Assembly: GCA_012295275.1 (NCBI GenBank)
Contig: CM022670.1
Coordinates: 18,724,001 to 18,788,000 of the forward strand
Direction: 5' to 3'
DNA from: Chrysomallon squamiferum
Taxonomy: Eukaryota; Animalia; Mollusca
Length of the DNA: 64,000 nucleotides
Shown here: positions 2,114 through 61,804 of the stretch, piece after piece
Position numbering within the stretch: position 1 is the stretch's first letter
Layout of the letters: the number at the start of each line of letters is the position of its first letter
Translations under genes and position numbers: made by a program
Notes under the pieces: model-generated
Told to the model about the DNA's origin: nothing
Seen by the model: only the letters and a program-made list of their open reading frames with translations
Database searches by the model: none

Positions 2114-2144
<31 letters not shown>

Positions 2145-3876: not shown

Positions 3877-3943
<67 letters not shown>

Positions 3944-4311: not shown

Positions 4312-4350
<39 letters not shown>

Positions 4351-6018
4351 TAACAATGTAATAGACATTATAAAAACCATGATAGATGCTGCCATTAAAA
4401 ATTCTGTGAAACCAGCTATAAACTCAGCTGTAATATATACTATTATGGAAAGACGTCACTTATGTAGCTAAAATCTTTATTTGATTCTAATCTTTTTCAT
4501 TTTACTGACTGTTTTAAATATAATACTGTATTCTATTTGGTTAGTGTATATGTCTTTATGTGTCTCAGGCTTTTACAGCTGCACTGAAATTTCTGAATAT
4601 AAAAGGCTGGATTCTTTTAAAATTAGTGCATACATGAAATACAAATATTTTTATTGACTGTAACAGCTGTCAGTGGTATTATATATACTGATATATATGC
4701 ATAAAGTTTTAGTCAAGTTATTGTACTTCTTAATAAATTCTTTAAATGTATTTTGGCATATTTTGTTTTATATTTATCCATAAATAACTTGTTAATCAGA
4801 TTATAATTACTGGGGATTTATTTATAAATTATATTTTTGTTCTTTCAAAGAGTTAAATTATTTGACTTTGCTGTTTACTTCATTATTATTGTTATCACTG
4901 TTATTGGTACTACTACACTTTCTACTACTATTAGTGATACCATTTCTATTACTGTTATAACTTATATATATATATTTTTATAATTATTAGTATAATATTT
5001 ATTTATTTTATTTTATTTTTTTATTTTTTAATTACTTTTTTATTCATAAAACATGAGAGTGTGTGTGTTGTATGTCTGTTTTTTATTTTTATTTATTTTC
5101 TAGCTTTGAAAGATGATAATTTTACAGAAGCACAAAGACTTCACCAGGTTTTAATGGTGGATCATACTAGTGAGGTATTTAAACAGTTTTTATTTGATCT
5201 GTTTTATAAAATATATATTATTCTTAAAAAGTGTTTTCCAAAAATTGAATGTTTTTCTTATTTGACTGAAGTGTTCTGTAATAAAACAAAATATTAAAAT
5301 ATGATGGTTGCAGTATTAGTGGCACTTCATACACTTTTATTTTATACTTGTGAGTTAAATTCTGTTATCACACAAGCCTACTGATTATAAAAGTAATGGG
5401 TTCACTGTTAGAAATCATTGATTATTGGAGTACACTGTACTGTATTTTCTCTTTACTAAAGCCTGTGATCAATAGAGAACATCTGGTGAGGTTCTTTGAA
5501 CTAATTTTGTAATTGGCTTTTTTCTTATCAAAGTCATTAACTGTATATATTATTACAATAGCAGAAAGTCATTCTAATTGTAATTTTAATTTATTTTTTA
5601 AACACTAATCAAGGGTAATATAACAGCATTTAGAATATATAAATGAGCTATGTAATATTAAATGTAAAAGCAATATTTTAAATATGTATAATATTTGTTT
5701 GAACTTAAGTTTTTAAATCTTTTTGTTTTAGTGTAGTTAAAACAAATTTCACTTTGTAGGCTTGAATTGTTCAAGTTATGTATACACTTATATCTTTAAA
5801 AGAACAGTGAGATGAAATAAAAACATCAGTGTATATTCAGTTTCAGCTTGTCTGTTAAAATATTACAGGTTAATCAGTGGATGGTTGGCATTAAGAAACT
5901 TATTCATGAAAGCCAGCTATTGGAAGAAAACTCAGAAACACAGTCACCGTCCAATGACAACAAAGAGGCTGACCTCAAGATAACACTGACACCTGCAACA
6001 GCTGAGAAATCTGAATAG
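1209..6018 (+). CDS. SRA1: Steroid receptor RNA activator 1 (SRAP), spliced gene span; 6 coding exons, 262 aa
   Basis: Exons 1209-1224, 1926-2078, 2638-2927, 3469-3577, 5104-5174, 5869-6018 join in phase with GT-AG introns (789 nt). N-terminal motif PGNPDRGWNDPP, RTLLNKRVAYP, Pro-rich linker and C-terminal LMVDHTSEVNQWMVGIKKLI are SRA1 hallmarks. Confidence 0.95.
1926..2078 (+). CDS. SRA1: SRA1 coding exon 2
   Basis: AACAG acceptor; encodes GNPDRGWNDPPMFGF...RRTLLNKRVAYPLN; donor G|GTTAGT. Confidence 0.93.
2638..2927 (+). CDS. SRA1: SRA1 coding exon 3 (Pro-rich linker and start of helical domain)
   Basis: TTTTAG acceptor, in frame with ORF 2643-2948, donor CAG|GTAGGC. Confidence 0.9.
3469..3577 (+). 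CDS. SRA1: SRA1 coding exon 4
   Basis: ARALEEITRKITVMQEMWEAGKFSESVK; GACAG acceptor, AAG|GTAAGC donor. Confidence 0.92.
3875..3945. repeat. (TTTA)n microsatellite
   Basis: Direct reading. Confidence 0.93.
4237..4355 (+). repeat. Dispersed duplicate, copy 2, in SRA1 intron 4
   Basis: Identical unique part to 421-479 with a longer (TTA/TGA)n tract. Confidence 0.9.
5104..5174 (+). CDS. SRA1: SRA1 coding exon 5
   Basis: ALKDDNFTEAQRLHQVLMVDHTSE; polypyrimidine tract plus TAG acceptor, GAG|GTATTT donor. Confidence 0.92.
5869..6018 (+). CDS. SRA1: SRA1 last coding exon
   Basis: TTACAG acceptor; VNQWMVGIKKLIHES... ends at TAG 6016-6018. Confidence 0.92.
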   Translation, partial: VNQWMVGIKKLIHESQLLEENSETQSPSNDNKEADLKITLTPATAEKSE

Positions 6019-15898: not shown

Positions 15899-16322
15899 TT
15901 AGGAAGATTTTGGTTTGTTAGAAACCTTCCGTAAGATTTTTGAAAACAGGGCTTTCTTCTTTGGCTTCCGACTCTTCTGTTCTTCAAAATCATGGTCATT
16001 TGTTGAATCTTTACTCTGCTGACTATCATTCATCAGCCTTCGCAGACCTGATGTTGAGATGCTTCGCTTTCCCTCAAATGTTGTGGCAGTGTTGGTACTA
16101 GTATCAGAGGAGGTGGGAGACAGGTTCAATCTATGGAAAGAGGCTGAGTATGGGATACTTGGAATGTGTTTGCCGTTGTCCGTCAAGTTAAGATGGAGGC
16201 CTTCTTTAGGATTTCTGTTTAATGTTGAGACAGGAGTGGTGGATTGATTGGAGGAGGATATGATAGAACTGGAGGCCAATGGGTCGTTGCTGGACAGTTC
16301 TGATGCTGCAGGTGGTGATGAA
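15899..16322 (-). CDS. STIM1: STIM last exon (Ser-rich region and polybasic tail)
   Basis: CCTCAG acceptor, in frame with ORF 15899-16279; ends KSRKPKKKALFSKILRKVSNKPKSS*. Confidence 0.9.
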
Positions 16323-17339
16323 CTGAGGAATGAAAATCAAGTATTAAAATATTTATAAAAATTCAGCTACTGTAAAACTGCTCTTGTAACAGATCAATGA
16401 AAGATATCCAAATCTTGAGACAAGTATTCAAACATTACAACTGCCAGTTTTAAATAAAATTTTATATTATGTATTATAATTTATTTCTTTTTTGTTCCCT
16501 TTTGTTTTTTAATTTTTTTTTCCCCTTTTTTTTTTTTTTCTTTTGGTATTTAAAGTGTCAAGACTCACTTGTCTCCAAGGTGAAACAAGACACCATTGCC
16601 AGCTACAGGCGTGTCAGAGGTTCTTGACAGACGATTTGTGTTGACAGGTAGAGAAAGTGAAGAAGTACTTCCAGAGTTTGGGTTGCTCATTGAATGGAGC
16701 ACAGATTTACTGGCAACCACTTTCATCACATATTCTGAGAAAAAAGTGAAAAAAATAGAAAAATAAAAAAATAAAATTGGATCTTTAACTATAACATTTA
16801 TTTTTTAATGTAAAGAACAAATTTAAAAAAATAAAAACTGTTTTCATGCACTAATTTTACAATAAATATGTGACAGAAATTCTGGTTACAAAATTTATGA
16901 AAAGATTTAAAAAATATTTTATGGTACATGTATATGTGATGTTTTTAAATATATTTTGAATAAAATGTTTCAGAGAAAAAAAACTTTTCAGCATGATGAA
17001 ACATTGATCATATATACTAAGAAAAACGTAAAAGTTTCGTGTTTGGACTGCTTGAGAAATATTTACACACTGAAATAAAAATGTTCAGTGTCATATATGA
17101 CATCAAAAACATGATAATAACTTTAAAAATATGTTAAATAATTTGTGAAAATTATTCATATGTTCTCAGAAAAAGCAAAAATAATAATTTCAGTTACAAA
17201 CATTCTCCGAATATTTCTAGAAAAGTGAAGGTATTAGTATGAATTCATGCTGGCAACTATCATCTAAATTTCTGAAAATCAATAAAAATATATTAATGCC
17301 TACTCAAAATTCAGTTTATAAATTCTTAGAAAACTACAA

Positions 17340-17389
<50 letters not shown>

Positions 17390-19852
17390 AGAAAATATCA
17401 ATCACATATTCTTGTATTACATAATCAACAAATGTATCATTATGAATCTATTGTATATTTAAATACAATTTCTGATTTAGAATATATATATATAAAAACA
17501 AAAAACAAAACAAAGAAAGAAAAAGAAATTGTCATAATATAAAATACATATATTAGAAAATATTCATTACATATTGAGAATACTGATGATTTCAGCATGA
17601 ATTTATGCTACAAATTTTCAACATGTAAATATTCTGAAACTAAACCAAATAAAATACTTAATGTATTCTTTGTAAGCCCACATGATTTAACAGTAATAAC
17701 AAAATGTGTATAAAAGTATAAAATATGCTTAAAGAAATAATCCAAAACAAACTTATTAAGAATTTAAATTGATTGGCTGAAAATTTAATTATATATTGGT
17801 TTTAATCAAATAATAAGAATTATTTTTTGCATAAACTGGTTATTTTTAAGTTTCAAGCTTTTGTTATGTTTAGATTAGAATGTTTAGTACTCTAGTTAAT
17901 CTTAAAATTAGGATTACATGATTTCAATTGCTATTACGTGAAAAAAACAACAACAAAAAAAACAATTTCATGCGTATAATTCTTTTTATTGTCTTTTGAA
18001 TAATGCATGTCTGAATTTACAAAAGTGCTTACCTTTTTTTTTTATCCATGTGGAAATATAAGAAAAATAATTACAAAAAGATGCTATTAGATTACTTCCT
18101 TTTGGGTTATTTTACATTTAACAGTCACAATGCTCAATATATATATATATATATCAAGCTATACAAACACCTTATCTAATGACTCAAACAGAAATAAATC
18201 ATGAATTTAAAGAGATAAAGATATTTCTGAAAGATTTTTCTGACCCAATACTGAAGACATTAAAGAAGTTTTCTCATAATTTCTGAAGATTACCAATATT
18301 CCAGTAAGCCTATCTTGGAAACTATACCAGCTATGGAAATGAGAATGGTATCAAACTAAAGATGATGTCATAATGAAAACTGAATACCCCCACCCCAATA
18401 CGCTGCTTGAAGTATTATTTTATGAGCAGGTTCACTATTACCAAACCAAGAAACAAAATGACTGTTTACCCAAGGGTTTATATTACAAAGGGCATGTGGA
18501 CTATTTTAGCCTTTTCTTTGCAACAATACAAATGAATGGATAATTAATTTCAGTTCATTTATTTATATATGATTATTTGCTTTATTTATAATTTCATAGT
18601 AGTTAAATCTCGTTTTCAAATTAAATTCCTGAAAATAAGAACATTTATATCAAATACCAAAATAAAATAAAGCTGAATATGCTTTATAGTGATCAGTGCT
18701 TGAAAAACAGATAGACAATGAAATTAAAGTTTTACCTTGTCCTTTAGTTGACTTTATGTTCTAGTGAGTGTTCCATGACTAGTTTAAAAAAAAGCCATGG
18801 GGTGTGTGTTATCTTGTGTGTCGGGTGCACATTAAATATCTTTTGCTCAAGAACAGATCACTATTTTAACAACATTTCACAACACAAACAAGGAAAAAAA
18901 TGAACAACACAGCTCTAACTGTACAATACACTAAAACTGAAAATAAAAAAAACAAAAACAAGAACAAAAAGACAAAGGCCTCTTGAAGTGTACATGAAAA
19001 AACAAAAAAACCTGCCAGAAACAAAGCAAAGCAAACAAGCTTCAACAACCCATAGCATACAACACACATGATGTCGTGCAAAGAGACAGTTTTCAGCGAC
19101 AACATGACAACATCGCTGTTTTTACCTCGGAACTTTTGTTTCCCACGTACACATGAACGTTCTTCCAAAGATGGGTAGTGTGGGGTGTTTTTAATTTGGT
19201 AATGATCTGCCATATGTACTGATGCTGAAACACAAGTGGCCTTATGATATATGAAATCAACATTAAAGTCTACCAAATGAGATATGGACAAACATGTTAT
19301 AAATAAATTTTGTATACTTCAAAGTTAAATTTTTGTTCATTGCTATATATTTACTTTTGGTTGTAATTAGTATGACAATAACATAATGAACAGACATGAA
19401 AAGTATGAATACTGCCATTTTTCTTTCTCTAAATGACATGATCTTACAAAGAAATGTAAAATGATAAAACCCAATTTGTTTGGCTGAGTGATGATGAAAC
19501 TAAACAAGTAATAAAAAATCAATAAATAATGTTCATACTTTATTGTAAGCAAGGACTGTTCTGCAGAACAAATAAAATAATCATTTGGAAGTATACAAAA
19601 CATATTTAAGCTGTTACTTGGTAGACTTATCCCACTGGATAAATAACAGGATTTGTTTTTTTTCAAGAATTTTCACACACAACACTATCTGCAATATACT
19701 GTAATAATAAGTTATGTTGTCTTAATACTATATTAAATAACTAAGAAACTGAAGCATAAATCAGTGAGATCATAGATTTATTGCCTTCTTTTTTCATGAA
19801 ATTTCTAAATATGTAAGATCTATTTTGTTTTTAGCTTTTACTTTTTAATTCA

Positions 19853-19885
<33 letters not shown>

Positions 19886-22800
19886 GAAAAACAAATTTAT
19901 TTACTTTTTTAAATATTTAATTAATTTTCATTAATTTAATTTTTGTAATTAATTTCTTTTTATCGTATCTTAAATTTTTCTGCTTTCATAAAACCAGTGT
20001 TTTTTTTAAACACTGCAGAATTAAATCTTTCATTAATTAACATTGTTAATTAATTTACTGCTGCCAATTAAGAAGTAACTGATTTATTAATTTGTTTTTT
20101 TATTTAATATTTGCTCATATCAATACTACACACTGTACAGCTGATATTTATTAACTTGAAAATACTCATAAGTTATGAAAACTAATTTTAAAAGAAATTT
20201 TAAAAGAAATTTATCCTTATCAGTTGCCATGTTGGTATATCATGAGAAATTGATTATTTACATGAAATCATTTTTAATTTCATCAGCCTTTATCAATGTA
20301 TTATATATGTATATAAAAGAGATATAAATATATCTACAGCTAAACTGCAGCTATCAGTGTTAGGTTATTACTTCCCTTGCTCCACTGGTAATATTTACTA
20401 TATCAGTTAGGTATAATAATACAAAATGTCAATTAAAATATTTTATATGATTTATTCATATATATGTTATATATATTCATATAACATGTATCAAAGGCAG
20501 CAGGTTAAATGTTACATATAAATATATCAGAATTAGATTCATTACATTATACTTGTTACTAGTACATTTGCCAGTTTAAAGTTAGTAAGTTAGGTAACTG
20601 TTCCATAGGTGGCAAAACACAACACACCTGTTATAAGATTACTGAATAATATATATTATAGTAGTTTACAAACCTGTGGGAAATGGAGGAATATCTTCAT
20701 CTGCATCATCAATTGCATAGTTGTGTGTTAAAGAAGGCACAGAATTACTAGAACTAGGACCTGCAAAACAACATTATAACACATGACTAATTATGTGTTT
20801 TTACAACATACAAAACTAACAAAAGTTATATGGATAAATAACTTTAATTCTGGAAAGTTAAATAAAAGGATTCTGTATGAAATTATCTAAAGCAGATTAT
20901 CAGCGTAACTTTATATATTCAGAAATGTGTATTTATCATGACTGATTTTATTTAAAGTTATATAAATATAATATACAGATTTGTGTGTGTATGAACATTT
21001 GTGGGTTTTTTTTATTTTTGTGTATGTATATGTTTATGTGACATATATGTTTATATGTGACATCCCCAAAAATAAACACAAATCAAATTTAAGACAAATT
21101 TCATCATTTCCAACCCAGTTAACCATAGCAGTATTTCAACTTTAAACAAAATATTAATACAAATGAGTTCGTAAACACTTACACACACCCAGATTATCTT
21201 TAAACAGCATCTGTCTTAGTACAGTGATTCCAGGGTTTGTCATTATAGGGAAGTTGCATATGTTTTCAATAGCATGCCAGCGAAGTAAACGTTCTTGCAG
21301 GTCTTGTTTAACCTCCTCTAGAGCAGCCCTAATAAATATGGTTAGTTTTAAATTATAACATTTGTCATGTGAATAAACATATATATATTTTAAAAATAAG
21401 GGAAGAAAGGAAAGAGAAAACTAGAAAGAACAAAGAACAGATGAGGTGAAGAAACTAGATTCAAATAGAAAGAAACACAGAGAGAGAAGGGTAACAGAAG
21501 GGCTATATAAAAAAATATAAAAAATTATTTTGTTCAATATTATAGATAGATTAAAAACACAACATGGAAATTAAAAAATCTCACTTTTTAGAAGTAACCA
21601 CACACACACAAGAAAAAAAAACAGTTTATAATAATTGTCACTGACTGCAATATTAAATTGACTCAAATATCTCAATATCTAAATACATATATACACATAT
21701 ACAGATAGACACACCCAGACATACATGGTGCATCACCTACGCACATTTTAATAGCCACTGTTACCAATTCAGAAATAATCACAAAGGAGTACATATGATA
21801 ACAATGTATTTATGGCCCCCAATAAACCCCAAAAATTAAAGGCACTACTGAAAATATATTATAAATATTTAATTTATTATTATTATTTTTTTAATGACAG
21901 TATTATAAATATGGTACTATTTGATGTTAAACTTTGTTCAAGTTTTTAGCCATTTTTGTAACTTTCAAAGCATCAGAAATATATCAGAGTAGTTGTGGTC
22001 AGTCCTTTTTTTCAAATGCAATACAGTGTTAAGATCACTACACTGCAAAAATAAAGACTGACCACTAATGCACTTGTAACGAAATCTAAATAAAATGATC
22101 ATTTTCAACAAAAGGATGTTGTGTCAGTCATTATTATTAATAATTTTAAATTTAGTTCTGCACAATATGGTCAGTTTAGGGGAAATAATGTCAGCAAACT
22201 GTTTAGCAATCCTGTAACAAGTCTGAACAAGTTATATAGTTACCTAGTAAGCTGCTGTTAAAACTAGAAAATCAACTTTATGACGTAACTAATATGCCTT
22301 TCATGAATATTACAATTAATGCACATATTATATTCCATTTTTGTGTTTGTTTTTTTTTCTGTTAAAAGTTATTTATTGTCTGCTAAAAACAAAACTCAGC
22401 TGAAAATGTCACTGAATGACACAACTTGTACAGACAAAATTACTTTATTATATAAATATTATTTTCTTTATTTGAAAACAAGTATTTCAGTACAGGTAGA
22501 ACAATTTCTTGAATTACACTGTAGTGAAAATAGTTTGCAAATAAATAAGGCTTTTAAAAAAATATATATATATCTAGGTCTCCCATTTAAGGCCTCAAAA
22601 AATAGCATATTCCTGACTATGAGACATAAATTTAGTAAAATGTATACCATATGTTGACATTTATTTGAGGGCAAAACACTATATTTACACCTTAGAAATA
22701 ATGGGTGACTAAAAAGTCATTCAGTGTTTTTTTTTTAAAGTTTTATAACTTCATAATATCTAGAGGATTTAGATTTTAAACGAGTTAGGTGTGATTCTTT

Positions 22801-25800
22801 ACATCGACTATCTTTTACAAAAATCACCCAATTTTGAAACAAATTTTGTTTGCTAATAATAAAGTAAAACAATATGTTCTTGATGTTTAAACATAAATAA
22901 CAATATTCATTTCTTTTCGCTTTATTCACTTTGTGATACAAATTATTATATTAAAGGCCCATTGTCTGATGAAAGTATGTAAGATGTTCCTGACATCTAC
23001 AACAATTCTTCTCAATCTGATATCTTTACCTGTTCAGTATATTGATTAAATTGTCTGAGTAATTATTAATAAAGGTTGTTGAGATATCTTGAGGAACATA
23101 TGTCATTTAAAAGAGAAGACAGCTATTAACAACTGGTTCTTAATGCTATTTCTGTTGACACTTGTTTCATTTTAATCTGATAATGATCAAAAACAATAAA
23201 TACTAGTGACTTTTAAATTCTCAGCCGATTATATTACAGTATTTATCTATTGACTAAATTTAAAAAGTTAATAGTATAAACATTACATTTGAATATTTTA
23301 GTCCCAACTAGAGAATTTTTAAAAATAATTTTCATTTCTATTTCATTCCAAGACTATTATGTCCCCGACACAAAAAGAAACTGCAGTAGCATAAAGGTAA
23401 GGACATGGGTACAAAAAGAATGTGAAAAGTATACAATACGTTTTCGAACTGGGATGGCAGACACTCACCGAGCATGCAGAATCCATTTGTCAACATCATC
23501 TAATGAGCTACTGTGAGCCATTCTCAGAGATCCGAAGAAAGCTCGGTTTCTCTTCCTAATTTTATCACACTGTAAACAACAAACACATGCTGGTTAGGTT
23601 TGTACATCATGCAAGCAACATATCACAAGCTGCATAAGACTTACAACAAATTGTGTTAAGATATTACAGATAACCTAGATGTATTTGATATGTGTCATGT
23701 CAGTTTAAATAAACATAATTTGCTTTCCATTACACATGAGACATGATAGATTATTTATATGATATTAAGTCAATCATTATAAAACATGTGAAATGTTTGA
23801 TTAAACTGACATATTATCCATTTCTGAGATATAATCACTACCACTGAAATGGAACACTTTATGACTGAGATGAAGGTTTTAATTTATATTAATTTTCAAA
23901 ATTAAGAATTTGGTTACGTTTCTACTAAGCACTACAAATATCCAGTATATATCCTTAAGATAAATAAAATTCTTCCCCAAATTTAGGCTAGAAAATGTAG
24001 AATTGTTAAAGAAATAGATAATGTATTTAAAATAATAATCTATACTGATGACTGTAGATTAATGTAGAGGTACTAGATGGTCTATATTAACTTGATAGCC
24101 AAGTTCTGCTATAGGATCGTCAGGAATATTACAAAGTAAAACTATTACTCAGTGTATAGATATAATAAAGTTTTCAAATAAATATTATTTGACAAGATAT
24201 GTTACTATTTATTTAATCGTTAACAATGAAATGTGCTTCATATAATATATATTGTATTTGTTTATTTATCAAGATACAATATGTTTATACAGTGTTTGTT
24301 TTTATACTACATATAAATATATTTTGTTTATTTATCACTATACAGTACATATATATATACACAAGTATAGTGTTCGTTTGTATGTCACTATACCATATAT
24401 AAATATATTTAGTGTGTATTTGTTAATGTACAATATACACATACCAATATATTGTGATTGTTTATCTTTCTATGCATGCACACAAACAAAACAAAATGTA
24501 ATTACAAACATCTATGTACACATAACTGTTTTTGATTAAAATCTTAATTCAATAGCATGCATTATCATTTATCCTGTTTAAATTAAATATTCCTTGCTGC
24601 CATTTAATTAAATTTGTGCACCCACACATAAATATGCAACAGATCAAATAGGATAATCAAACGTGTTCATACACACAGGCACACAGACACACACACATAT
24701 AACTACATCTACATCAAAACACTTCATATACAAAATTTATTGTTGAACGTATCAGTAATTATGGTATGTTAAATAAATACTACATATATATATGTGGAGC
24801 TTATGTGAGAGAAGATGAATGTGCCTGTTGAATTATAAATAAATAAAAAACGAAATCATATAAACAGAAAAAAATATTTGAAAAAACAAAACAAAACAAA
24901 CCCAAAACAAATTATAAATTATATTTCCTAATATTTCCTAATACTTTTTGTATTACATAATATTCTCTGATATACTGTTCTGACATTTTATGGAATATAC
25001 TCAGTTTGTGACCATTTTTCATAAATTAAAAAATAATAATAAACAATGAAAACAAGAACAAATACAGTAATTCAGCCCGGTTATTATTTTCAAAAGTGTT
25101 TGCTATCAGTCAGTTCTAAAACAATAATACTACTTTTAATGTTTATAGATAAATGAATATTTTTTTTAGTATAGTAAAGCATTATTATTACAAAAAAGAA
25201 TGTTTATACTTAATCTTAACATTTGTTATAAAATCAGATTTGTTGTCCCTGTCATTTCCCTCCCTGCTTTGTGAATGAGAAAAAAAAAACACATTTAAAA
25301 ATAAGGCTGGAATGCATTTATGTTTAAGTAAAAATAATACATATATTCGTAACTGCACAATAAAAGTTGTTTTTTGTGATGATGATGACTATAGTAATAA
25401 TACTGATAGTAGTAGTAAAAGAAGTTGCAATGACATTACCGGTATTAGTAATATTATTAGTTAATAACCAATACACATAAGCCACTGTAGCAAAATGAAT
25501 GATACGGGGTGGATAATTTAATCGGTTACCATGTTTTTCTCAACTGCTGCAATAAACTGCAATGACTATATAATATATGCAATGTATATAATAAATAAAT
25601 AAAAATTAATCAGTCAGTAAGCACATGAGTACTCACTTCCTCTTTGGCAGTGTCCATCTGTTTCTCTGCTGCCTTCCTCTTCTGCAGGTAGTGGTTGTGC
25701 TCCACTTCATGGGTCAACTGTAGCCAGGCCTGGAGTTCACTGGGTATTGTCCAGTTGTGTTGGTTCTCCAGCTGTTTCTCTGTTCTCTTCAATGTGGCTC

Positions 25801-28800
25801 GAAGTTGTGCTAGTTCTTCTTCTGCCACTCTCAAACTGTTCACCTGACCATCTTTTGTTTGAGCCTAAATAAAATAAAAAGAACACTTACAATAATATAG
25901 TATAGCATATGATATTTTTTAACAGACTGACTCAATATTCTTTGCACTAGATGTCAATAAGAATTGCACTGAGAAAAAATATGTGTGCTAATTGAATGCA
26001 CTTAGAATGACATACATGACTGTTGCACCCTTTTTATTTTCACAGTCTTGACTGATATTTCATCAGTCATATACAATTAAAATTATATAAATGACAGTAC
26101 TGCATACTCCAGTCTTGATGTTTCAAAGACTGTAAACACACAATTGTGCAACATTTTCATCTAAAGGAAGGACGGATGTATTTTATTTAACGATTTACTC
26201 ACAACCTGGGTAAGAAAGGCTGTGATATGTACTACCTTGCTATAAAACAATAAATATTTTCCAATGACATCAACAGTTATTTCAAAAACATTATAAAATA
26301 AAATAGATGCCAGTTACACTGTATTTTAGAAATCTGCATAACTGTTATAGTTGCAATTTTATTTTTTAATCTGTTTTCTTTCTTCTTTTTTTTTTCTCTC
26401 ACTTCTGATATTTTTTCTATTTCAATTTAATGTTTTATGCCTTGCAATAACCTTCTTTTTATAGGGATCATTATCTGACTGAAACAAGAAAGTGTCTTCA
26501 AAGGCATGATTGAAAAAAGATATGACTTATTGTATGAATGAATGAATATTTGTTTAACAATACACCAACACAATCCAGTGTTGATTTAAATCAGATTTCT
26601 TAAAAATATTATTTTATTATATTATCTATTTCTATTGTCTAAGTATGTGATAAATAATAATAATAATAATAATAACAATGTTAAAAAAAAAAGATTTTGA
26701 ACACTTTATATTTATTCCAACTTTGTTTTCTTTTGATTAAATTACAATACTGGAGAGAAAAAAAAAAGAATATTTATAATAATAATAATAATTTAATATG
26801 CCACTAAAACAACAGTAGTCACCCATTTGCTGTCCATATGTTCTGATGTCCCACTATCTACAGCTTTGAACTCCATGGATGGAGACAACTGCCTTTGTTC
26901 TGCCATTTCCAGTCTACATGTAGATAAAATTTACATATTAGTATTACAAATCATTTACAATTTTACATTGGATAAATGTATTTTCAATTACCAGGAATGG
27001 TTGTTCTTTAATATTATAATCAAAGTTAATGAAGCTTTGCATTCATATTATTAAATATTCAACTAAAATAATACAAAAATAAAAGATTTGTTTAAAATAA
27101 CATTAAAATGAAACATTTATCAATATAAACAAAATAATCATTGGTCTCTTCCAATATTTAGCAGCAAGAGATCTTTTTACCACTAAACAGTGAGCTAACC
27201 CATGACCTGCCCATGCAAAATGGCAGATATTTACAATATCCATTTTCAGTCTCTGTAAGCTGATAGTCTGAATATCAAATGAGCACAGCATTATTAATAA
27301 AAACAGCACTTGAATAGTAATACTATTAACCAATTGGGTATAAATGTATAGGGATTTTTTGTTTGTTTATTAAAAATGTAACCACTTGGGTTCAAAGGGT
27401 CAAGTGTTAGAGAGATTAAGTATAATATTACATTGTTTAAAGAGAAATGATACATTTACTAAGCTTTAAGGTTACAGATGATGTTATGATGGGGGGGCAA
27501 AATAAAACATACTGTTCAACATGAGAATGAATAAACCCAAATGCAATAACAATACTCTTGCACAAATGTTCACTGAACTTAAAAATGGATGTTTTAAAAA
27601 AAACAAGAGAAAACCAGCATATAAAAAAATTAAAATTTAATAAGTGAAGGTTATATGGTATTTTATTGATTATCTCAAGCAGTACCAACACTAGTATCTT
27701 GTTAACATATGACTGAATTAAACAAAGAGAAAAGATGAGGATATGGACTGCTAAGTTACACTGAACTGTACATCAAGGGTTTTACATTGGAGTATGAATT
27801 ATTAAAAATATATATTTTTATTTCATAAAGGTGACTGTGCCAACATGACATGTTTATGTGTTCTATACTGAACAAATTCCCAATATTTTACTTTTATTTA
27901 AGTTGGAAATGCGAAAAAGATAAATCAGAGATAGATTGTAAAAAAAAAAAGAAAGAATATTAGTAAAGAAGAAATAATTGAAAAGATATGGAAAGAAGTG
28001 GGGAAGGAAAGGAAGGATACACAGAAAGAGAGAAAAGAAGAAGAAGAGAGAAAACAGAAGGCATAAAATATGTGAGATAAAGGACAGGAAGAAAGAGAAG
28101 AAGAGGCAGACAGACACAGAAATTGAGAAAAATTCATACAACTGAAATAAATGATAAGAGATTTTCACACAAACTAACTTTTCCTGAAGTTCTGTTAAAG
28201 CATCTTCAGCTTTCTGCAGGGATTCCAGATCCTTCATCATGCGTTTAATGTGAGTCTGGGAATACTTGTGATGAACATAGGCAAACCAGCACCCACCAAG
28301 AGCAATAACCAGCGATCCCACCAATGCAACATCAGTAAGGTAACCATGTGCTTCTGAAAACAAAATAATCATTCATTTTATTCAGGTAGACCTTAAAAAA
28401 AATATTCATCACTAAGTATTAATTTAGTTTATTTTTGCTATCTTTTACATTTTTATTTATTTATTTATTTATTTATTGTTATTGTTATTGTTATTGTTAT
28501 TGTTATTGTTATTATTATTATTCTTTTTATTTTTTATTTTTTATTTTTTTAAATTTTAAACATAAAGAAAGTGCTATTCAATTATTTGTTAATTAAGACT
28601 GCAAGGAAAAAGTCACCTGATCACATGATTATATTTCACGAAATATCTTCCCTAGTTCATGAATTAGAGCACATGCATTCCAAACTGTACTTATATTTGA
28701 CCATTAAACTCAGATTTTTAAAACTAGGAAACCCATTAATAAATTCAAATGCAAATACAAAAACCTACTCTTAATACACGTCAAAACAAATACATGAGTT

Positions 28801-29044
28801 GATGGCTCCCCTGCCTGACAATGTCAAAAGCATAAGGATGCTGTAAACATTTTAAATAATGTATTTAAAACATGTTAAAAGATGAATAAAAAATTTAACT
28901 CACTTTTGGGTGGTCCAAACAGCACTGTATCCATAGCTTTAAGAGCAAGCTTCTGTCTGTGTATGGAATTTTTTATACCAAGAACATTGACAAAGAAGCT
29001 GCTATTGCTACAAGCCAGTCTGCAAAATAGCATAAAAATTATTT

Positions 29045-29106
<62 letters not shown>

Positions 29107-31252
29107 TCAATCTAAAGATATTTAATCTATAAATAAATAAAAATCAATTACTTTTTTTTTAATACACATATTCTTTGAACAGGCAGAAATTTTAAAAAAA
29201 ATTCATATCTTTTATTTTTTTATATAATGGATTACTGAACTGTATATCTTAGAACATATTGTTTTTCTATTTTTTTCATAAAATGTTACCAACAAAAATG
29301 ACAAAAATAAACTGTTTATACAAAAGATGCACTGCTTGACTACTGCATCCTAATCCAAAATGATTATAGTCAGTAAACTGGGTTTAACGATTGTTTTCTA
29401 TCATAGTTGTTATCTTATTTTATTACACAACAGAGATTATCAGAATAACAAGCCTATTACACAATAACTGATTTAAAAAAAAAAGAAAAAGACACCTTAA
29501 TTCAACTGATGAATTATCAACATATTTAACATTACTTCATCTGATCCAGTATGGTACAACTTTCTCCTAACGCAAGTATGGACAATAGGAATTTGCTGTA
29601 TTATTTGGATTTTTACAACAAATAAAAATCACAAGAAACCATTTTCTAGACAGGAAGTTAACATTTTCTGTAAACTCTCCCGAATTTTTTTATCATTCAT
29701 CAAATATTAATTAATATTACAGCCAATTAATTAAAAATCTAACATGCTCATGAAAGTTTCTTTTTCATTATTTTTTTTATTAAATTTTATTTACAACACT
29801 TAATTTATATTCAAAGAGAACATGAAATTCTGTACAAGGCAAATCCAAGATAATAACAAACTTTGATTATATATAACCTAAATTGATTAATTTGTTGAGA
29901 CATCAAAGATATTTCCAAACACTGTCATTTGTAATGTGTTACATCCATTTTAATTACCTGTTTGATACTGCATTCTTTTGCACATAAATAGATACTGTAT
30001 TTTCCAGAAAACATTAATTTAAATTAATTGAAAACCAGATACAAGATAAATAAAAATGTGACCAGTTAGCAAACATTAACAAATTTGTAGATTTTAGACA
30101 TTTATAAGTGTCCCTGTCATCACTGATATATGGTATAATTTATGACAACTAATGTTTGTCTAAAGCACCCCAAAAAAAAAAAAAAAAAAAAAAATGTATT
30201 TATATACATATCTATCTATAGATATATATATATATATAATTTGAGATAAATGAAAACAAGTGAAGTACAAAAAAAATTGAATATAAAGAAAAATATCACC
30301 TTTGTAAGATTCAGAACCTTTTGTAAATAGAACAAAAGAATTTCTTTACAGTCAGTAATATGTATCAGTGGGGTGGTTTTAATATGAAGTATTTGTTCTA
30401 TATTTTAAATTTATTCATAAATGTTTTAAAATTCTTTGTGGGAAATAAATAACAAAGTAGAAAATTTCTTCCAAAAACAGCAATGGAATCAAGAATGAAA
30501 GCGTTGTTTGAGGGATTAAAATGTTGATGTATCTAATTCCCTTCCTCTGTTAATTTTCTGAAACAATGACAATAAAGGGATGAAGAATGAAGAACCAAAT
30601 TTAAGACTTTCACCTATCCCCTCACTCTTTCTATCTTGTCTTCCTCTTTTTTTCTTTGTTATATGCTCAAAAACAACAGATACACACATGCACACATGGA
30701 CACACACACATTCACAAATATTTAATTATTAGAAAGAATCACCATATTATAATCCAGCCCAAGAAAACAATCTTTTTTTTTGTAATTAAATCTGAGACAG
30801 GAATCATTATTCTAGTAATTAATCTAATTAATCTACAGATGAGTATTAATTCTGTAATAATGAGATACCAATGTGACAAATTCACTATTATTTTTTATAT
30901 ATAACCTTCTTTTGTTACAACTTATACTTCAGCTTATAATTTGTCTTTATGAAAAAGGATGGGAAATGTCTCTTTCAAATGCATTTTCTAAAAATGTATT
31001 TATTTATTTATTACATTCTTTTTTTTATCTTTCTTTTTTTTCAGAAATAAATAATGAAGCTTAATCAATCCATTCACTTACATTCAGAAATGTTCACTAC
31101 CATTTATATGAAAACACAATGAAACATTAATATACCTTGGTAAAGATGTTCCATCAACACCATTTGCCACGAAGACATCGATATATTGTGGTAGTTCAAC
31201 ATGAATTTCCAACCATTCAAGAACATCATCAACTGTCCAGTTAAATACTGAA

Positions 31253-31284
<32 letters not shown>

Positions 31285-34200
31285 GTTGCTTTTTTTTAAA
31301 ATTAGTAATTAATTAAAATAAAGAGAAAGATAATTCAAAGCAAATTTCTGATACATGTTTTGTACTGCAACAAAAATATAGCAATAGAAATCCTGTTTCT
31401 GTAACTTGTTCTTCTTACTGGTTCTGAAAAATAAAAATCTATATATTAATATAAAATTATATTTCTTTAGCATACCCTTAGTCTTGTAGGTCTTCTTTTT
31501 AACAGTCACAATTCCTATTTCCAGCCAAGACTTGAAGACTAGTTATCAAAGGCTGTGGTATATTTTTTTTCAGCCTTTGGAGATGAAGACATATTGCCTC
31601 TTTTCCTGTATTTTTAATTTTCCAAATGTGTTTGACATAAGAAACATTAACATTAAAATGTTCTGAAATGTTATTAAAGATTTATTCATTGTTTTTGGGG
31701 GGTTATGGGTTCATTTTTTTTTTTTTTTTTTTTTTTCCCCTTCTTTGTATTATTGTTTTGTTGTTATTTAAATACCAAATTATAAAAGTATTCCTTATGC
31801 TGCTGTGTACTTAAACAGTTATTCACTGCATCTCTGTTACATAAACATTTTTAATTTAAAACAGTCTCATATTATTAGTTTTCTATTTATAAAGATTGTC
31901 TACTAATTTACTTCTCGAAACACTGTTAATATACTGATAAATTGTATCATAAATTTTATTATTGACTATTATTCCCAAGACTATTTATTACAGTGTAAAA
32001 TGAATAATGAAATTATTTTAACATACAGAGCCAATGTTTTTCATCTAAAATTTTTAAATTATTGTCTTTTCTCAATGAAAGAAGTTGCTTCTGTCCTGAC
32101 TGTTCTGTGTGGAAGACATATCTAGATGTATGTGTGTATGTTATGTGTTTGAATGTGTATTTGCATATATTTTTCTCATATACATACATTCAGAGACACC
32201 AACATTACTATATACTGCTATACTAAACATGCATGCTCAGTCTCTGTACTCAGCTTTATATATACACAGAGACATGTACAAAACTGACAGATGTTAAATC
32301 ATAATCAGACTAGTGTAAACATCAGAACATAGGAAAAGTCTTAGGAAGAACATGCTGACTGAAAAGTTCTGGACAAGCTGTTATATAATGGAAATGTCAT
32401 TATTCAGGAAAAATAATTTATAAGACTTTTAACTACAAGTTAATCCTTTTTCATTAATCCCCTGTGTTGAATAAATTTTTCTACTTAACCCACAACTCAC
32501 TGATTAATCAATAACAAACATGTTTGTATTTAGTATATGTTATTATTTTGACTAAAACTCATACTAATTTTAAAAGAAAATAATAAATCTGCTTTGACAT
32601 AACTCAGTCAGGTCTTGTCAACAACACATTATATGTGCTAAGTGACATGTATGTATAGATAATACATACTGATATGAAATTATAATGAAAAATAATAAAC
32701 AGTAAACGAAACACAAAATAAAAACCATGTCAGTAAAAACAACATCTGAAAAACAAAGTAAAAAAGAAAAATATTCTAATTTCATTCGGATTCATTATTA
32801 ATTTCACTGTTAATTGTCAAAAACATAGTTTTTATACCATGGTAGTATTAGAAACAAATTGAAGAATACTACTAATAATAACAACAACAACACTCTTCTA
32901 TGAACTTCTGTAACTAAATAGCTAAACAGCTCTAAGGAATTATTTACATGTATTTCCCACTGATAGGAAAATGTAAAAAGGGCCACTTTCTTTGATGTCA
33001 CAGTCACAGAGTGTGGGCTGTAACAAGAAATAGCCCATGACTACATTAAAGAAGATTGATCTTGAGACCTGTTATATATTAAAAAAGTCCTAAAGGAAGA
33101 TTGGTCGTGTGCCATTTATGTATAATTATCTAATACTCTACTCCTTGATCATCCTACAATATACCAATACAATACAATGTACTGAATGACATTACTTAAC
33201 ACAAAACACCCCCAAAAACTACAAATAAATAAATGAAAAAACAAAACAAGGTAGGATGGGCAGGATATCACTTCCATTCTTGCTGGGGGGGGGAGGTTTT
33301 TTTTTCTGTTCTCATCTTTTCTTCTTCTTCTTTTATTTTATTTTTTTTATTTATTTTTTTTATTTTTTGTAGTTAAAAGTATAGATTAACATGAACTTTA
33401 ACATTTGATCATAGTCATGTGAATTTTATTTACTGTGAGGCAGATTTGAAAGAAACTAATAAGTGTTATTGATACACTGGGTGTACTTTTTCACTGTATC
33501 GTGTTTCTTTATTTTGTAACCAGAAAGAAGAAATGAAAAAAGAATCCATCTTAGTCAAATATATTACATTCTGTTTTTATTCACTTATTGTACTCTTGAA
33601 GATTTTATGATGTACCAGCACAGGCAGATATAAACTGTTGCCAAATTTTACAAAAACTTTGTATTATATTTCAATCAGAACAAAGGTAATCTGCTGTGCT
33701 TTGTGTTAAATCATTGGTTTTGTCCATATGTATCATAATTCTGTCAAATAATACAGGTTCAAAGTATAATTATGTTTAATTATCTAAATGTGCTTCACAA
33801 CAGCTTGCTCTGATTAGCACGTTAATTATTTTCCATTCCATTCCATAAATTAAGTTCTTTATTTATTTTTTATTATTTGGAGGGGGGGAAAGATTTGGTT
33901 GTATTTTAAATATTTTTTTTAAATTTTAGCATAATAAAGTGTTGTTGATATTTACCAATTCTGTGATATACCTGTTTAGTACTTAAGCAAAAGTTAACTG
34001 GTGTAACAGAATCTCTGTAGTTATGTATTGTATATCATTCTAAACAAACAATGTCAACTGCTGTAAAGTGTTTTACATTAATGGTCATCCTACTGGTGGT
34101 ATGTAGTAAAAACATTCAAGCTTGGTTAAATAGATCCAGGTTGGTTAAACTTGACCGTGTTGTTTGACCCTGTTGTTAGTATAAACAAAAACCAAGAAAT

Positions 34201-36174
34201 ATCTTCATAGAATTATCTTTATATCTACATTAAAAGTGTATTTTTATATCTTCATTAAAGAATGTAAATAAATAAAGAATGAACGAATACTTGTTTAATG
34301 ACAGTTATTAGCTAAGAAACATGACCTGAACAAGGCAATTTTAAAATGACAAACTAATCTTTCTCAGTCAGCAATAGTGGATCTTTACAATCAACTGTTA
34401 TATGGGGAACTACAAAATACCAGGTTCTTACCACAGACAGCTACCTAACAAATCTTTGCAAAACCTACAAGAAGAGTTCTTCAGTCCTACTTAGTTCTAA
34501 AACAGGCAATACGATAATAATGAACTGAAACAATAGAATTCTTCAGTCTACCAAAGCAGACATTTAAATAGATTTGGCCTACTTTTTAAGAAAATGAAAT
34601 TTTGCAGGGCAGCTGAGAAAATGGTCTTGTTCAACATGCCAACTAACTGTTCTGTTGTCCGCTACCAGGAAATAAAGGTTCAGTGTAGATATAATATTTC
34701 ATGCTTTGTGTCAATAAATCATTCAACTTAATTATCTTTTTTATTTATTTCTGCAAAATGTTGCTGCACACCTAGCTGACATTGTGGCACCTGTTTGCCA
34801 CAGCATACTGGCTGGGTATCTGTGATTATATATAAACAATATTAAGGCCTTTTGCAAACTATAAAGCATTTAAAATGACTTTTAGATAAATCAGCTGAGT
34901 GAAACTTCCTATAACAATATGAAGTACAACAAATGTGCTGAGAATGACTGAATCCCAATCAGAGCTTACATGAGTATTCTAACCACTGAATCTGTCTATA
35001 TTATAAGAAAGTCTGTAAGACTATCATCATTGCCTGAAATAGCAAATTAATTGAAAACTGTCTGATTCATCACACCTCTGGGCAATAGATTATTTAAATA
35101 ATCATCGTCTGGTTTTGGTCTCTGGATTCAAATTTATTGTTTCTGTAGCAAAATATTGATTTTAAAGAAAATGGTCAATTAAAGAGAAGTTGAAAGATTG
35201 TATCTATGAAACAGCATGAGCAGTATGAAAGCAAAATATCTAAAATTAAAGCTGTTGTTTGTTACCCATATGCAGATTTTCCCATCAACAAGAATAATGG
35301 CAACTATAACTTTTTATTAAACTATCTATTTCTCATTTCATAATTATTTTTTGTTACTGGCATGTTGTTTCTCTTCATTTTATACATTTATATGTGTGTT
35401 TAAGTATGTGTGTATGTGTGAGTATATCTGGTTTTATGAATGTGTGTCTATGTAGGTGTGAGTAGGTGTACATGTCTGAAAGACTTATCTTTTCATTTTA
35501 TATTACATTTATTATCTTTATCACTTTTATTTTGTATTAATTCTTTTTATTATTTTCAAAATTAAAAGAGAAAAATAATACTGTTAACACATGTGTGCAA
35601 GTGTGGGAAATAAAACCATAACAATCTTTTTTACTTTTTTTTAAAAAAAAAAAAAAAAAAAAAGAAAGAAAGAAAAGAAAAGGAAACAAAAGGTTTCTAC
35701 TTGATCACCTTAAGACATGTAAAGGTTAAATTATTTAATTATACCTTGATGCAACTTAAGACGGATCCTGATAAACAGAAAGAATTCTGACTAATGATGT
35801 AAATATAATGAATGGTGTTTGATAAAACAGAAAAAGAAACTTCCTGATTAGTTCCTGTGAATGATACCATAATTATAATACAGAATCAAAAAAAATATGT
35901 ACTAAGTGAGAACCAGAGACAAATTTAAAAGATACAAGAGTTAGAACGGAAAAAAACACAAGAGAGAGACAAAGGGAAAGAAAGCAAAAAATAAAAATAA
36001 AAACAGAAAGAATAAGAGTAAGAAAAATATAAAATAAAAGTGAGAAAAGGTGAGATAGAGAGAATGAGATATAACTTTTCAGATACCAATCCAAACTGAA
36101 AATCTTCATTTTTATTATTACAACTCTCTTTTATTCTTTTTTTAAAAATATTTTGTGTGTATATATATATATAT

Positions 36175-36211
<37 letters not shown>

Positions 36212-37635
36212 ATTTTTAAATTACAATCTCATCAAAACCTTTAAAATACGGCAGAAAACTTAACTCTTTTTATAGATGTTCATGAACTTGATAGTAGTTA
36301 TATAATTATAGTATCATTGTTCTACTATTAGAAAACAGATCAAGTCAGGAATAACAATTATGATACGGCTGCTTCTATGTAAGATGACTCTAGTATTTCC
36401 ATATCAAGTAACAGTCTGCACAATTTGGTTTGAGAAATAGTACATACAATATACGTCATACAAATAATGAGAAAATAAGATTCGTGTACACAGCTAATTT
36501 GATTGGTTTTGCACAGCTTACAATTATGAAATGGAGATATATTCTTGTACCTATAATCACAGGTAAAATAAGATGATTAAAACAGAACTTTCAAGTCTGT
36601 GCATGCAGGTGATGCCTACAAAAGCTAAGAAAATGACACGGGTGATTAATTTTCTCCTTGAATTATAAGGCAACTTTGATTTAAAAAAGATGTAGAATAA
36701 GGCAGAAAGATATTGTTCTAAAATATTCTCTCTATCACATATATATTTATATTAACCTTTTTAAGTATATCTCTGAGAAAAAACCCTCAGTAAGTATATA
36801 AAGAAACCGAAAAAAACAATCTATAGTCATTTTTAAATATACAAGATTTAAACAGAATAGGTTTCAAGGGTTTATTATTATTTTTATTGTTATTAAAAAT
36901 TTTAAATCAGAAGAACATAATATTTTAAAGTTCCTTCATATTTTGTAAACCTGTGTATGTGTTACTCACTCTCTTTCTTATCTCTGTACATACATACATA
37001 GATATATACACGGATCTTTCCAAGAGCCAGTTCAGATATTAGATCATAAATGTCTGTCTTCTTTCTGATTCATTGTCTAACATTAACTGTTTTCTGCTGG
37101 CAATCTAATTTTTGGCTGCTTCTTTAGATACAATCATATTTTTCTATACCACACTTTTCATTGATTTTTTTTAATGTTTCCTTCCAAGTAAATCAAATAC
37201 AGTCTAGAAATAGATGTCTCTTACTTTTCTTTAAAAATCAGAATTGAAGTAAACTACATGTGTATGTGTGTAAAAAAAACCATTTGTTTCTGTTTTTATT
37301 TTATTTTTTAAAGGAGTCTAGATCACATAATGATAAATGTTGGTAAAATGTATTAGTTTCATAACAATCTGATTTTTGTCAATAACATTTAGTTACAGAT
37401 AATATTATACAGTGGCTTAAGGCTACGACCACAATATCAGTTAATAAATGTACCCAGTATAATTATTAAAATTTCAAAATGTTAAAATTCCTTTAAACAA
37501 TCATTCATACTGAGTAATCGTTAAAATAATAATATATTGATGTGTTGTTAAACTATCATTCATTTAGTCACTTATCTTCATTTCACAAATATATTTCTTA
37601 TTCATTTTTCCTATGTGTGTGTCTGTGTGTGTATG

Positions 37636-37667
<32 letters not shown>

Positions 37668-38962
37668 TATATAATATATATAGAGGTTTTAAATTTGAAA
37701 CAAATCGGTTTGTTCTCCGAGAATGTCAGAAAGATCATAATAATGCACACATGAATTAACATGCCTTTGATTCACTGTTCTCAGAGAGATAGCAGGGACA
37801 GATATTTACTTAAAATAGAGACTCAACACATAATATATTGATGGGACAGATATTTCACAAATATACTGTGTGTGTATGTATATATATATATATTACAAGA
37901 ACTAGTGATTCACTGTTCTCAGAGAGATAGCAGGGACAGATATTTACTTACAAGAACTAGAGACTCAACACATAATATGATAGTTGTCAATATTGAATTC
38001 ATTTAGCAGATTTAATCATGTTGCAATAAATGGGCAACATTTACTGGAAAAGAAAGATTCTTTCCACTGTTATTTGTTTTATGTTCTAATTTAGCCCTTT
38101 ATTTTTATTAATTTTTTTTAAAATATAAAAAAGTTTTTTTTATTATTAAAGATATTATAATTATTATTATTTTTATTATTTCTATTTTTTTTTTATTATT
38201 ATTATTTCAGCAAAAAATCTGGATAATAAATATTATTCAGACTTAAAATATATATTTCAGGTTTTTAAATTGTAAGAGTGAAGAAAGCAAGCAGACAGTT
38301 CTTGAAGAAAATATCAAGAAAAATTACTTGTAAGTATTAAATATATTTAATCATCAAAGTTTACCTTTAATATATTTAATTTTAAAATTCTATCATTTCT
38401 TCTCAAAATACCAACCATCAATATCTTCCTCAAATGTAAGACATGACTAAATATAAATTATTTTCAAATAGATAAAGCCAGAGACCTGAAGGACCCTTGA
38501 ACCCTAAATATAGAAAATCACAAACCTTGGGAGCTCTTCCAAATCTTCCATAAATCAATGACACTAATTTGCTTGTCATTGCCATGAAATGTCTTCTGTC
38601 TTTCAAACCCATCAGTATATTGTAATTCATCCCTTAGAAACTGAAAAATTAAATATCAGTATTATAACATTATCATTACTAATATAGTTCTCACAAAATT
38701 AAAAATAAGTTAAAAGCATTTTGCATAACACATTTATTGTTTAACAAGTTTCTTAAATATAAAGACAAATATCAATAGAGACATAATGACAATTGTTTTT
38801 TCTGTTTTGCTCTGATTAATTCAGTTAGTTAATCAATCATTCATCAATCATTCAGTCAATTATTTACTCAGTTAGCTAATCATTTAGTCGTTCAAACAAT
38901 TAATCAGTCAATTTAATCAACCATCTGTGGTTTGAAACATCTGTTTAGCACAGAATTCAATG

Positions 38963-39015
<53 letters not shown>

Positions 39016-41204
39016 ATATAATCCTAGCTTTCCTTTTTTATATATATATATAAACATATAAATGCTAATTTAGTAATTATATGCATTTTTGGAACTCTTT
39101 ATATATAATAAATAAATTAAAATTGCTTTGATAAATATGACAACTGAAAAATTCTCAGAGTAACAGTGATGTAAATGCATACACAAAAACAAAAAAAATG
39201 AACCTCGAAGCAACAATATTCAGATAATGAAATGTAATCTTGCCTGAATGTTTTCATCAAGACTATTTACATTTTCTTTTCTTCTAGGTTTTAAGTTTAA
39301 CAATTCATGTATCTGTGTACTATATGTTTTAGAAAAAAGAAGATATATTTATTTGCTGGAGGGTAAAAATACACTAAAAAGTAGCTTTTATAGGTGTTTA
39401 GTCTGTGTTAATAATCAGTTTTCTTTGCTGTGCAGAAAACATGAGGTATATGGATAACATTTTTTTTTTTTTTTTCACCACAGGGAAACAGAAAGTGTAT
39501 TTAAGAAAGTAAATGTATGAATAATAAAAAAAAGGTGTTTTTAAATGCGGTGGTACCTGTCTTGTACAGGCACTGGTGGGTCCAAACAAGTTTCCCTACA
39601 TTGCAGGTGTCCCTCATTAGAGGGATAAAAATTACAAATATATCAAATTAATTGATGGATGTAAATAAAATTTATTTTTCATTTCATGAAACATATAAGG
39701 TATATTTATGTTTTAAAAAATATTTCAGTTCTCAAGTTCCAAACTGGTATGACTGTCTGCTGTAGAACTGGAATAATAATTTTAAAAATATTGAATGTGT
39801 CTGCATTCAGCAGGTGTCTGCTGATCTAAGGGACATATATACTGAAAAGCAACAGCTTACATCAGGGGCCACTAAAGACAGATATCATTGTACTATTTTT
39901 TAAATTGTTTTTTTCAAAAAAAAAAGAGTAAACTTACATTTTAATATAAGTAATCTCTCATTCAATAAATGAGTAATCATTGGAACAATAACAGTACAAT
40001 ACAAAACAATCAATGTAAACAAAGACATATTTTGTACTGTGCATAAACCAAAAAACCTAACCATCACCCCACAAAACCACACCAGTCTATTATATAAATA
40101 TCAACTGGACATAATGTTGAGGTACCTTCTAACATCTATATTATTTATGTATTTATTTATTTATTCATATATTTTTATTTATTTATTTATTGTTATTTTA
40201 ATCACCAACTGCAAGCTTTACAATTCAAATTTTATTTTATTATATTCAGTAGTGTAAGGTAGTTTAAAATTCAATTATGCATCTTGCTAAATCATTTTAA
40301 ATACAGTTTTAATTAATTAAATTTTGATATTAACATTCAAAATTATTATTATCATCATCATCAGATGCATGATCATTTCTTTAAACATGTTATTTTTTAT
40401 TTTATGTGTCAAAAAAAATCATTTTCTGTGCTAAATTTACTATTTATATTTCCAACAATATTATTAAAACAAAAATATAATTATTAAAAAAAACTGGCAA
40501 GAAAAAAAAAATGCTACAGTTAATTAAAAATTGTGATGCTGACAAGTTTATGTGATGAACCATGCACTTATCCAAACAAACAAATGAAACATCAACATGA
40601 AAATAACAAAAAACTAACACATAGCTTCACAATACACACTAAAGTAAACAAATTAAATGTACTGAATTATTTATTTTATGGGTAAAAATAAATATCACTA
40701 TATTAGTATATAGTATTAACTTGCTGTTTTTAATGCCAATCATTGAAATTATCAACATCAATACATTTTTGTTAGAAATAACAAAAATATGAGAAAATAA
40801 ATAAATAATAATAACAACAACAATAAATATATATATATATCCACCCCAAAATCAACAAAACACAACAACAATATTTATATAAATTAACAGATTTCAAACA
40901 CAAAATTTGATCAACATATTTAAAGTGTTCACAGAATATTCTTTCGTTAATCAGACACTTTTCCATGGAAGGTATATTGTTTTCATTTTGTTGTACTATT
41001 TTGCAGTTTATGTTATAGGGATGGGCAGTTCATTTTTTTTTTTGAAAAAAGGTTAAGTTTATTTTTTATTTCTTTCTTTTAGATGTTTGTCTGTTTGACT
41101 AATATCAAAGTAGCAGCTGATGTGTTTCAAACTGAAAACATCGTTAAACTGACAGATGGCTGCATTATTCCTGAATAAACAACCATCTGATTAAAAAACA
41201 TATA

Positions 41205-41240
<36 letters not shown>

Positions 41241-61770: not shown

Positions 61771-61804
<34 letters not shown>

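Follow-up and report, generated by a model that had tools for sequence, protein, structure and literature searches.

In mammals, the STIM2 gene contains a 24-nt exon, exon 9, whose inclusion, proven by RT-PCR, generates the form of the protein named STIM2.1 or STIM2-beta (PMC4411291, PMC4460148, PMC6274866). The exon lies in a phase-0 intron of the SOAR/CAD region, just before the basic Orai-binding stretch, and its product, VAASYLIQ, enters after the position of STIM1 G379 and STIM2 E383 (PMC6274866). According to the accessible part of the same report, the insert lowers helicity, abolishes calcium entry even when it is placed inside STIM1, disables STIM1 as well as STIM2, and is known from STIM2 homologues alone. 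Inserts that carry mutations remain unable to activate Orai1, but they inhibit more weakly, which indicates that strong inhibition is sequence-specific (PMC4460148). The available text of that paper describes exon 9 in most mammals and no annotation of it in non-mammalian vertebrates, a point that Rana et al. leave open.

Another class of short exons with particular splice signals is represented by the neural microexons dependent on eMIC/SRRM3-4, which are defined as 3-27 nt long. In the accessible part of the study describing them (10.1101/2021.02.24.432780), exons of this class in both flies and mammals have long tracts of pyrimidines and, near the AG, a UGC; the fly exons are typified by acceptors that are very weak, by extended AG-free zones and by a strong branch point downstream. 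Rbfox proteins typically activate exons from downstream and repress them from upstream, as stated in the available portion of PMC11874969. A partial survey of the open-licence literature on STIM splicing returned no report of an insert in the SOAR of an invertebrate.

The window analyzed here, a stretch of 64,000 nt of the Chrysomallon squamiferum genome, contains an intact, ordinary gastropod STIM gene (Table 1). Fourteen coding exons were mapped by tblastn of mollusc STIM proteins, from about 48089 to 15899, the start of the first exon being not fixed; the 13 exons from 43014 onward, joined with the candidate described below left out, give 657 codons followed by one terminal stop, and EF-SAM, transmembrane segment, coiled coils and SOAR all lie in one open frame, as expected of a STIM. 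The nearest named protein is Gigantopelta aegis STIM (XP_041360090.1, XP_041360091.1, XP_041360092.1), with 89% identity over the upstream exon, where it is the sole match among 80 longer candidates, and 94% over the downstream exon; its residues 355-455 align with the SOAR structure 3TEQ. The upstream exon encodes the first third of SOAR, and the CDKIRKR sequence at the start of the 101-nt exon is the basic Orai-binding stretch of this domain. The two snails also have in common an alternative exon after the acidic stretch: the 99-nt exon matches a 32-residue segment of the Gigantopelta aegis protein that is present in isoform X1 and absent in X2. Variation of 5-75 residues is observed in this region in other molluscs as well, and the vertebrate forms STIM1A/B/L, as described in the accessible parts of PMC13143212 and PMC7795233, vary in the same general area.

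Table 1. Features of the STIM gene and of its SOAR intron, in positions of the window.
Feature	Position	Strand	Basis
STIM gene (EF-SAM, TM, CC1, SOAR/CAD, acidic stretch, polybasic tail)	15899..48089	-	tblastn of mollusc STIM proteins
Upstream exon, 228 nt, phase 0-0, ends AKEE, donor GTGAGT	25637..25864	-	Pfam SOAR positions 1-39
Phase-0 intron, 2067 nt, at the STIM2.1-equivalent junction	23570..25636	-	intron found at this place in other animals too
Branch-like CTGAC, with its A at -26 relative to the candidate acceptor	23699..23703	-	sequence
Candidate 30-nt in-frame piece VICNILTQFV, CTAG acceptor, GTAAGT donor	23645..23674	-	sequence pattern
75-nt segment from the candidate to the next exon: GC 0.39, TGCATG, CTAAC, GCATG	23570..23644	-	sequence
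Downstream exon, 101 nt, phase 0-2, starts CDKIRKR	23469..23569	-	tblastn of mollusc STIM proteins
99-nt in-frame exon after the acidic stretch	19126..19224	-	matches alternative segment of Gigantopelta aegis STIM

The initial annotation had proposed that the SOAR intron of this gene harbours a microexon similar to that of STIM2.1, able to generate an inhibitory form of the protein. The pattern on which this proposal was built is found in the DNA as described: the 30-nt piece, bounded by AG and GTAAGT, is stop-free and can be read in phase 0-0 as VICNILTQFV, between an upstream exon that ends in phase 0 with AKEE and a downstream exon that starts with CDKIRKR; the 75-nt gap that follows contains TGCATG (23613-23608), a CTAAC branch motif (23597-23593) and GCATG (23590-23586), and the CTGAC motif is located upstream. 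The junction, too, is the one claimed, since AKEE/CDK aligns with the G379/E383 site of STIM1 and STIM2. Thus, the candidate is confirmed as a sequence pattern, not as a spliced exon; the part of the proposal that concerns exon status did not hold up equally well, because of a very weak acceptor and of the lack of the insert in 134 mollusc proteins, among the matches listed.

The candidate would occupy the same phase-0 SOAR/CAD intron as mammalian exon 9, just before the basic Orai-binding stretch, and, as in STIM2.1, would give rise to a short in-frame insert made up mostly of non-polar residues. Conversely, exon 9 is kept across mammals in the accessible accounts (PMC4411291, PMC4460148, PMC6274866), while the snail piece is 30 nt long instead of 24, is known as a pattern alone, had no counterpart detected, and sits in the single-copy type of invertebrate STIM, unlike STIM2.1. 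Aligned without gaps, VICNILTQ and VAASYLIQ are identical at V1, L6 and Q8; the BLOSUM62 score is 11, with a background of 0.6-2.9%, and among 14,348 intronic 30-mers free of stops, at least three residues in eight are identical in 0.9% when the offset is the same and in 2.9% when any of three offsets is allowed. At the AA, SY and LI pairs of exon 9 that have been tested functionally in the available part of PMC4460148, one position out of six is matched.

As anticipated in the initial annotation, the pyrimidine tract of the candidate acceptor is weak. With a matrix built from the 13 real acceptors of the gene itself, which is a small sample, the candidate scores -8.3 while the real sites range from -2.7 to 11.4 in leave-one-out scoring, and 639 of 739 intronic YAG sites score at least as high, which places it in the bottom 14%. 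Four T residues occupy positions -20 to -4, compared with 6-13 in the real acceptors, and there is neither a YYYY run in the 45 nt nor a TGC in the 40 nt before the AG. The AG-free zone is 46 nt long and not exceptional, the range for the 13 real acceptors being 14-90 nt. Branch motifs are found at -26 from the candidate acceptor and at -25 from that of the 101-nt exon, whereas 8 of the 13 real acceptors have none within 60 nt. The GTAAGT donor corresponds to the full intronic consensus; its use together with the candidate acceptor would require splicing of a 75-nt intron, the shortest of the 13 mapped introns being 246 nt. The very weak acceptor, the long AG-free zone and the branch motifs up- and downstream are shared with eMIC/SRRM3-4 microexons, but the candidate differs from them in the absence of UGC near the acceptor and of a pyrimidine or UCUC tract, in having a strong instead of a weak donor, and in being longer than 27 nt, so far as the accessible description of that class goes (10.1101/2021.02.24.432780).

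For longer exons that would share the candidate donor, 15 further acceptors are available within 400 nt, each of which leads to a stop when read in the upstream exon's frame; the 75-nt segment, if retained, contains a stop as well. A word search of sequencing runs gave four RNA runs from one study with a share of 0.07, which the 101-nt exon alone would yield and which speaks neither for nor against the 30-nt piece, itself too short for a 31-letter word, and one run of unstated kind with a share of 0.85. A single chance-level match (E 0.76) was obtained with Rfam; folding of 23540-23760 gave z = +1.23, with no structure; and the candidate region is not a repeat in the window or in the 80 metagenome loci described below, its best other match (E 0.009) being AT-rich DNA.

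Similar pieces arise by chance rather easily. An in-frame, stop-free YAG…GTAAGT of 9-60 nt is present in 10.6% of 2000 dinucleotide shuffles of the SOAR intron, and with looser donors a look-alike appears in 14-39% of them; the combination of such a pair with TGCATG within 150 nt downstream is limited to 0.65% of the shuffles. In the 29.4 kb of STIM introns, the sense strand has two pairs of this kind, one of which is the candidate, and the antisense strand has one. The second AG…GTAAGT look-alike, of 54 nt, is located at 45955-46008 on the minus strand, in the first mapped intron; since this intron is in phase 1, the frame tested is not the coding one.

The 75 nt that separate the candidate from the 101-nt exon have unusual features. 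Their GC content is 0.39 (range for the final 75 nt of the 12 remaining introns, 0.07-0.32), and they contain two GCATG, whereas none is present in the corresponding segments of the others; among intronic 75-mers, 3.9% are as GC-rich and 0.08% contain two GCATG, the flank itself being counted. Among 1489 overlapping windows of 221 nt, the highest number of CATG, six, is found here. The composition resembles that of the flank of the alternative 99-nt exon, which ranks second in GC content (0.32). Over 30 kb of STIM introns, TGCATG occurs 14 times against 3.6 expected, and CpG is at 0.18 of expectation; the sense strand has 14 copies of TGCATG versus 5 on the antisense strand, a bias that CpG decay alone would not give. 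Four GCATG are present in the SOAR intron, at 24560, 24479, 23612 and 23590. In addition to the TGCATG at 23613-23608, two copies of this hexamer, 81 nt apart, are found in the middle of this intron (24479-24561, minus strand), at the first two of these positions. The pair close to the exon flanks the candidate on its downstream side and the 101-nt exon on its upstream side alike, and it could equally repress the latter as promote the former.

Relatives were examined at the protein level by collecting 437 STIM-family proteins, 415 of which cross the junction; the queries were insert-less, no mammalian STIM2.1 was used as positive control, and some clusters are represented in part (15 of 89 and 15 of 23 members). 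None of the 415 has an insert like the candidate, among the matches listed. Within the same limit, the insert is absent from all 134 named mollusc proteins that cross the junction (135 examined, from about 44 species counted by hand) and from all 23 transcript-derived mollusc-like proteins that do so (25 examined); the three annotated isoforms of Gigantopelta aegis also lack it. The same isoform sets do contain STIM differences of 1-9 residues elsewhere, as in Haliotis rufescens (5, 8 and 9 residues), Mya (8), Babylonia (6) and Octopus (1). Seven non-mollusc proteins vary in length near the junction, including P0183, which has this stretch twice. Four clean inserts, of 1, 6, 8 and 25 residues, all begin with V and otherwise have nothing in common, and the three with known cluster size are singletons; these properties suggest that they result from run-on into the GT of the intron. 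The mite gene models P0304 (RWS23447.1) and P0183 have unrelated junction inserts of 8 and 6 residues that start with V, and these are likely prediction artefacts.

At the DNA level, 131 relatives of the upstream exon were found in metagenome contigs, and the best 80 of the 131 were examined. In 54 of these, GT is found exactly at the junction, 37 loci containing the whole intron and 17 ending before the next exon; the remaining 26 continue without intron or insert. All the 54 interrupted loci have the intron at this same position. The junction intron is therefore ancient, and any exon-like piece inside it would sit at a "homologous" place, so the homologous junction by itself would carry little weight as an argument for an exon. 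The 37 full introns, 8 of which are merely 62-125 nt long, collapse to 24 distinct upstream peptides (16.8 kb). Four of the 24 contain an in-frame YAG…GTAAGT, of 21, 39, 48 and 57 nt; these pieces are unrelated in sequence and place, one of them starts with V, and no look-alike is shared among the 24 introns. The conserved exon that the initial annotation led one to expect at this junction was thus not encountered, either in the 134 named mollusc proteins (among the matches listed), where close relatives were covered at the protein level, or in the 24 animal introns. Similarity allowed 17 of the 80 loci to be labelled: none is gastropod-like, one is nearest to proteins of bivalves and another to STIM1 of vertebrates. 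When the downstream exon was sought with a degenerate DNA pattern, the metagenome contigs gave no match, and contigs of prokaryote genomes gave 26, none of them a relative.

Two observations on these introns can be added. In locus L065, the SOAR intron is 75 nt long, in frame and stop-free, and reads from V to Q; its retention would add 25 residues to SOAR. In worm-like STIM genes (L056 intron 1217-1437, L067, L072, L079), the SOAR introns share a block of 90-250 nt with 67-73% conservation; it shows indels and no shared in-frame exon in three related introns, and may be an ancient repeat or have a regulatory function.

The best reading of these data is an ordinary STIM gene with an intronic look-alike: the candidate is probably an unused pseudo-exon, removed together with the 2067-nt intron. 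The protein would read AKEE-CDKIRKR, with the Orai-activating helix unbroken; the spliceosome would pass over the candidate because its acceptor is nearly devoid of a U-rich tract, and the nearby TGCATG would derive in part from CpG decay in a methylated gene body. We regard it as unlikely, by judgement and not by computation, that the piece is genuinely used as a cassette exon restricted to certain tissues, arisen in the snail lineage independently of mammalian exon 9. Were it so, RBFOX at the two downstream GCATG would favour inclusion, the ten extra residues would interrupt the helix of SOAR just ahead of the basic stretch that binds Orai, and the resulting STIM could not open Orai and would damp the wild-type protein through heterodimers. 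The consensus donor, phase 0-0 and the open frame are in keeping with such an exon, as are the unusual flank, the rarity in shuffles of a pair followed by TGCATG, the branch motifs, the 3/8 match with VAASYLIQ and the strand bias of TGCATG, which goes beyond CpG decay alone; a weak acceptor with an AG-free zone and a downstream branch point has a parallel in fly eMIC exons (10.1101/2021.02.24.432780), and downstream is the side from which Rbfox typically activates (PMC11874969), in the accessible parts of both sources. However, the flank and peptide features in its favour were chosen after the fact, the acceptor ranks low among intronic YAG sites, the insert is missing from the listed mollusc proteins, the nearest relative among them, and look-alikes are common in other animal introns. 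As regards function, the mammalian insert disables STIM1 too (PMC6274866) and mutated inserts are inactive on Orai1 (PMC4460148), and a ten-residue insert at this junction would likely be inactive towards Orai by analogy; its role as a dominant-negative form would be less certain, since the strong inhibition by the mammalian insert is sequence-specific in the available data (PMC4460148) and a different insert might be inactive instead.

A further explanation, less probable still, is that the candidate is not an exon and that the two GCATG are putative RBFOX repressor sites acting on the 101-nt exon. Its skipping would shift the frame and introduce a stop six residues past the junction, leading to mRNA decay or to a STIM cut inside SOAR. 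This stop falls 18 nt into a 140-nt exon, a position that fits the 50-nt rule for mRNA decay. The odd flank would be explained without a microexon, in agreement with its resemblance to that of the alternative 99-nt exon; one GCATG lies between branch point and acceptor, and repression from upstream is typical of Rbfox (PMC11874969, accessible part). This explanation leaves unaccounted for the GTAAGT exactly at the start of the unusual 75 nt, and no isoform of this type was encountered among the annotated mollusc ones, where its sampling would be poor; the bivalve-like protein P0350, which runs from the junction into sequence well beyond the 101-nt exon, may stem from an erroneous gene model. 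That the candidate is homologous to exon 9 of mammalian STIM2 and was inherited from a bilaterian ancestor can be considered most improbable. The position in the same intron and the three identities, with their background of 1-3%, would agree with it, and Rana et al., in the text available, leave open an unannotated exon 9 in non-mammalian vertebrates (PMC4460148). Against common descent stand the different length (30 vs 24 nt) and the single match at the six tested positions (PMC4460148), the lack of a shared look-alike in the 24 introns, the 8 of 37 loci whose introns are only 62-125 nt long, and the absence of anything like the insert in the 415 proteins, among the matches listed. Exon 9 is annotated in mammals alone and the insert is known from STIM2 alone in the accessible parts of PMC4460148 and PMC6274866, which makes shared ancestry very unlikely; the suggestion in the initial annotation that the switch is ancestral to bilaterians can thus hardly be maintained.

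It is doubtful, then, that an RBFOX-switched 30-nt exon of the snail lineage enables a single STIM gene to produce an activator of Orai as well as a brake on it. If this were true, it would be the first STIM2.1-like switch in an invertebrate, exons would have been born convergently at a single weak point of the structure, and an animal with a single type of STIM could use an inhibitory splice form to adjust its store-operated calcium entry. A second natural insert, of other length and sequence, would also provide a test of STIM2.1 inhibition, namely of whether the exact sequence is needed, as the available part of PMC4460148 indicates, or merely a broken helix, as that of PMC6274866 does.

Other features were observed in the window outside the STIM gene. 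Exon-like frames on the plus strand at 1898-2080, 2631-2945, 3450-3572 and 5821-6015 (within 1898-6015) resemble a gene of the steroid receptor RNA activator (SRA1) type; the two of them that were tested gave no Pfam match, nor did a 260-codon open frame at 61053-61832 on the minus strand. Just upstream of STIM, on the opposite (plus) strand, a single open frame at 51659-52102 encodes a profilin domain (Pfam PF00235, E 3.8e-13).
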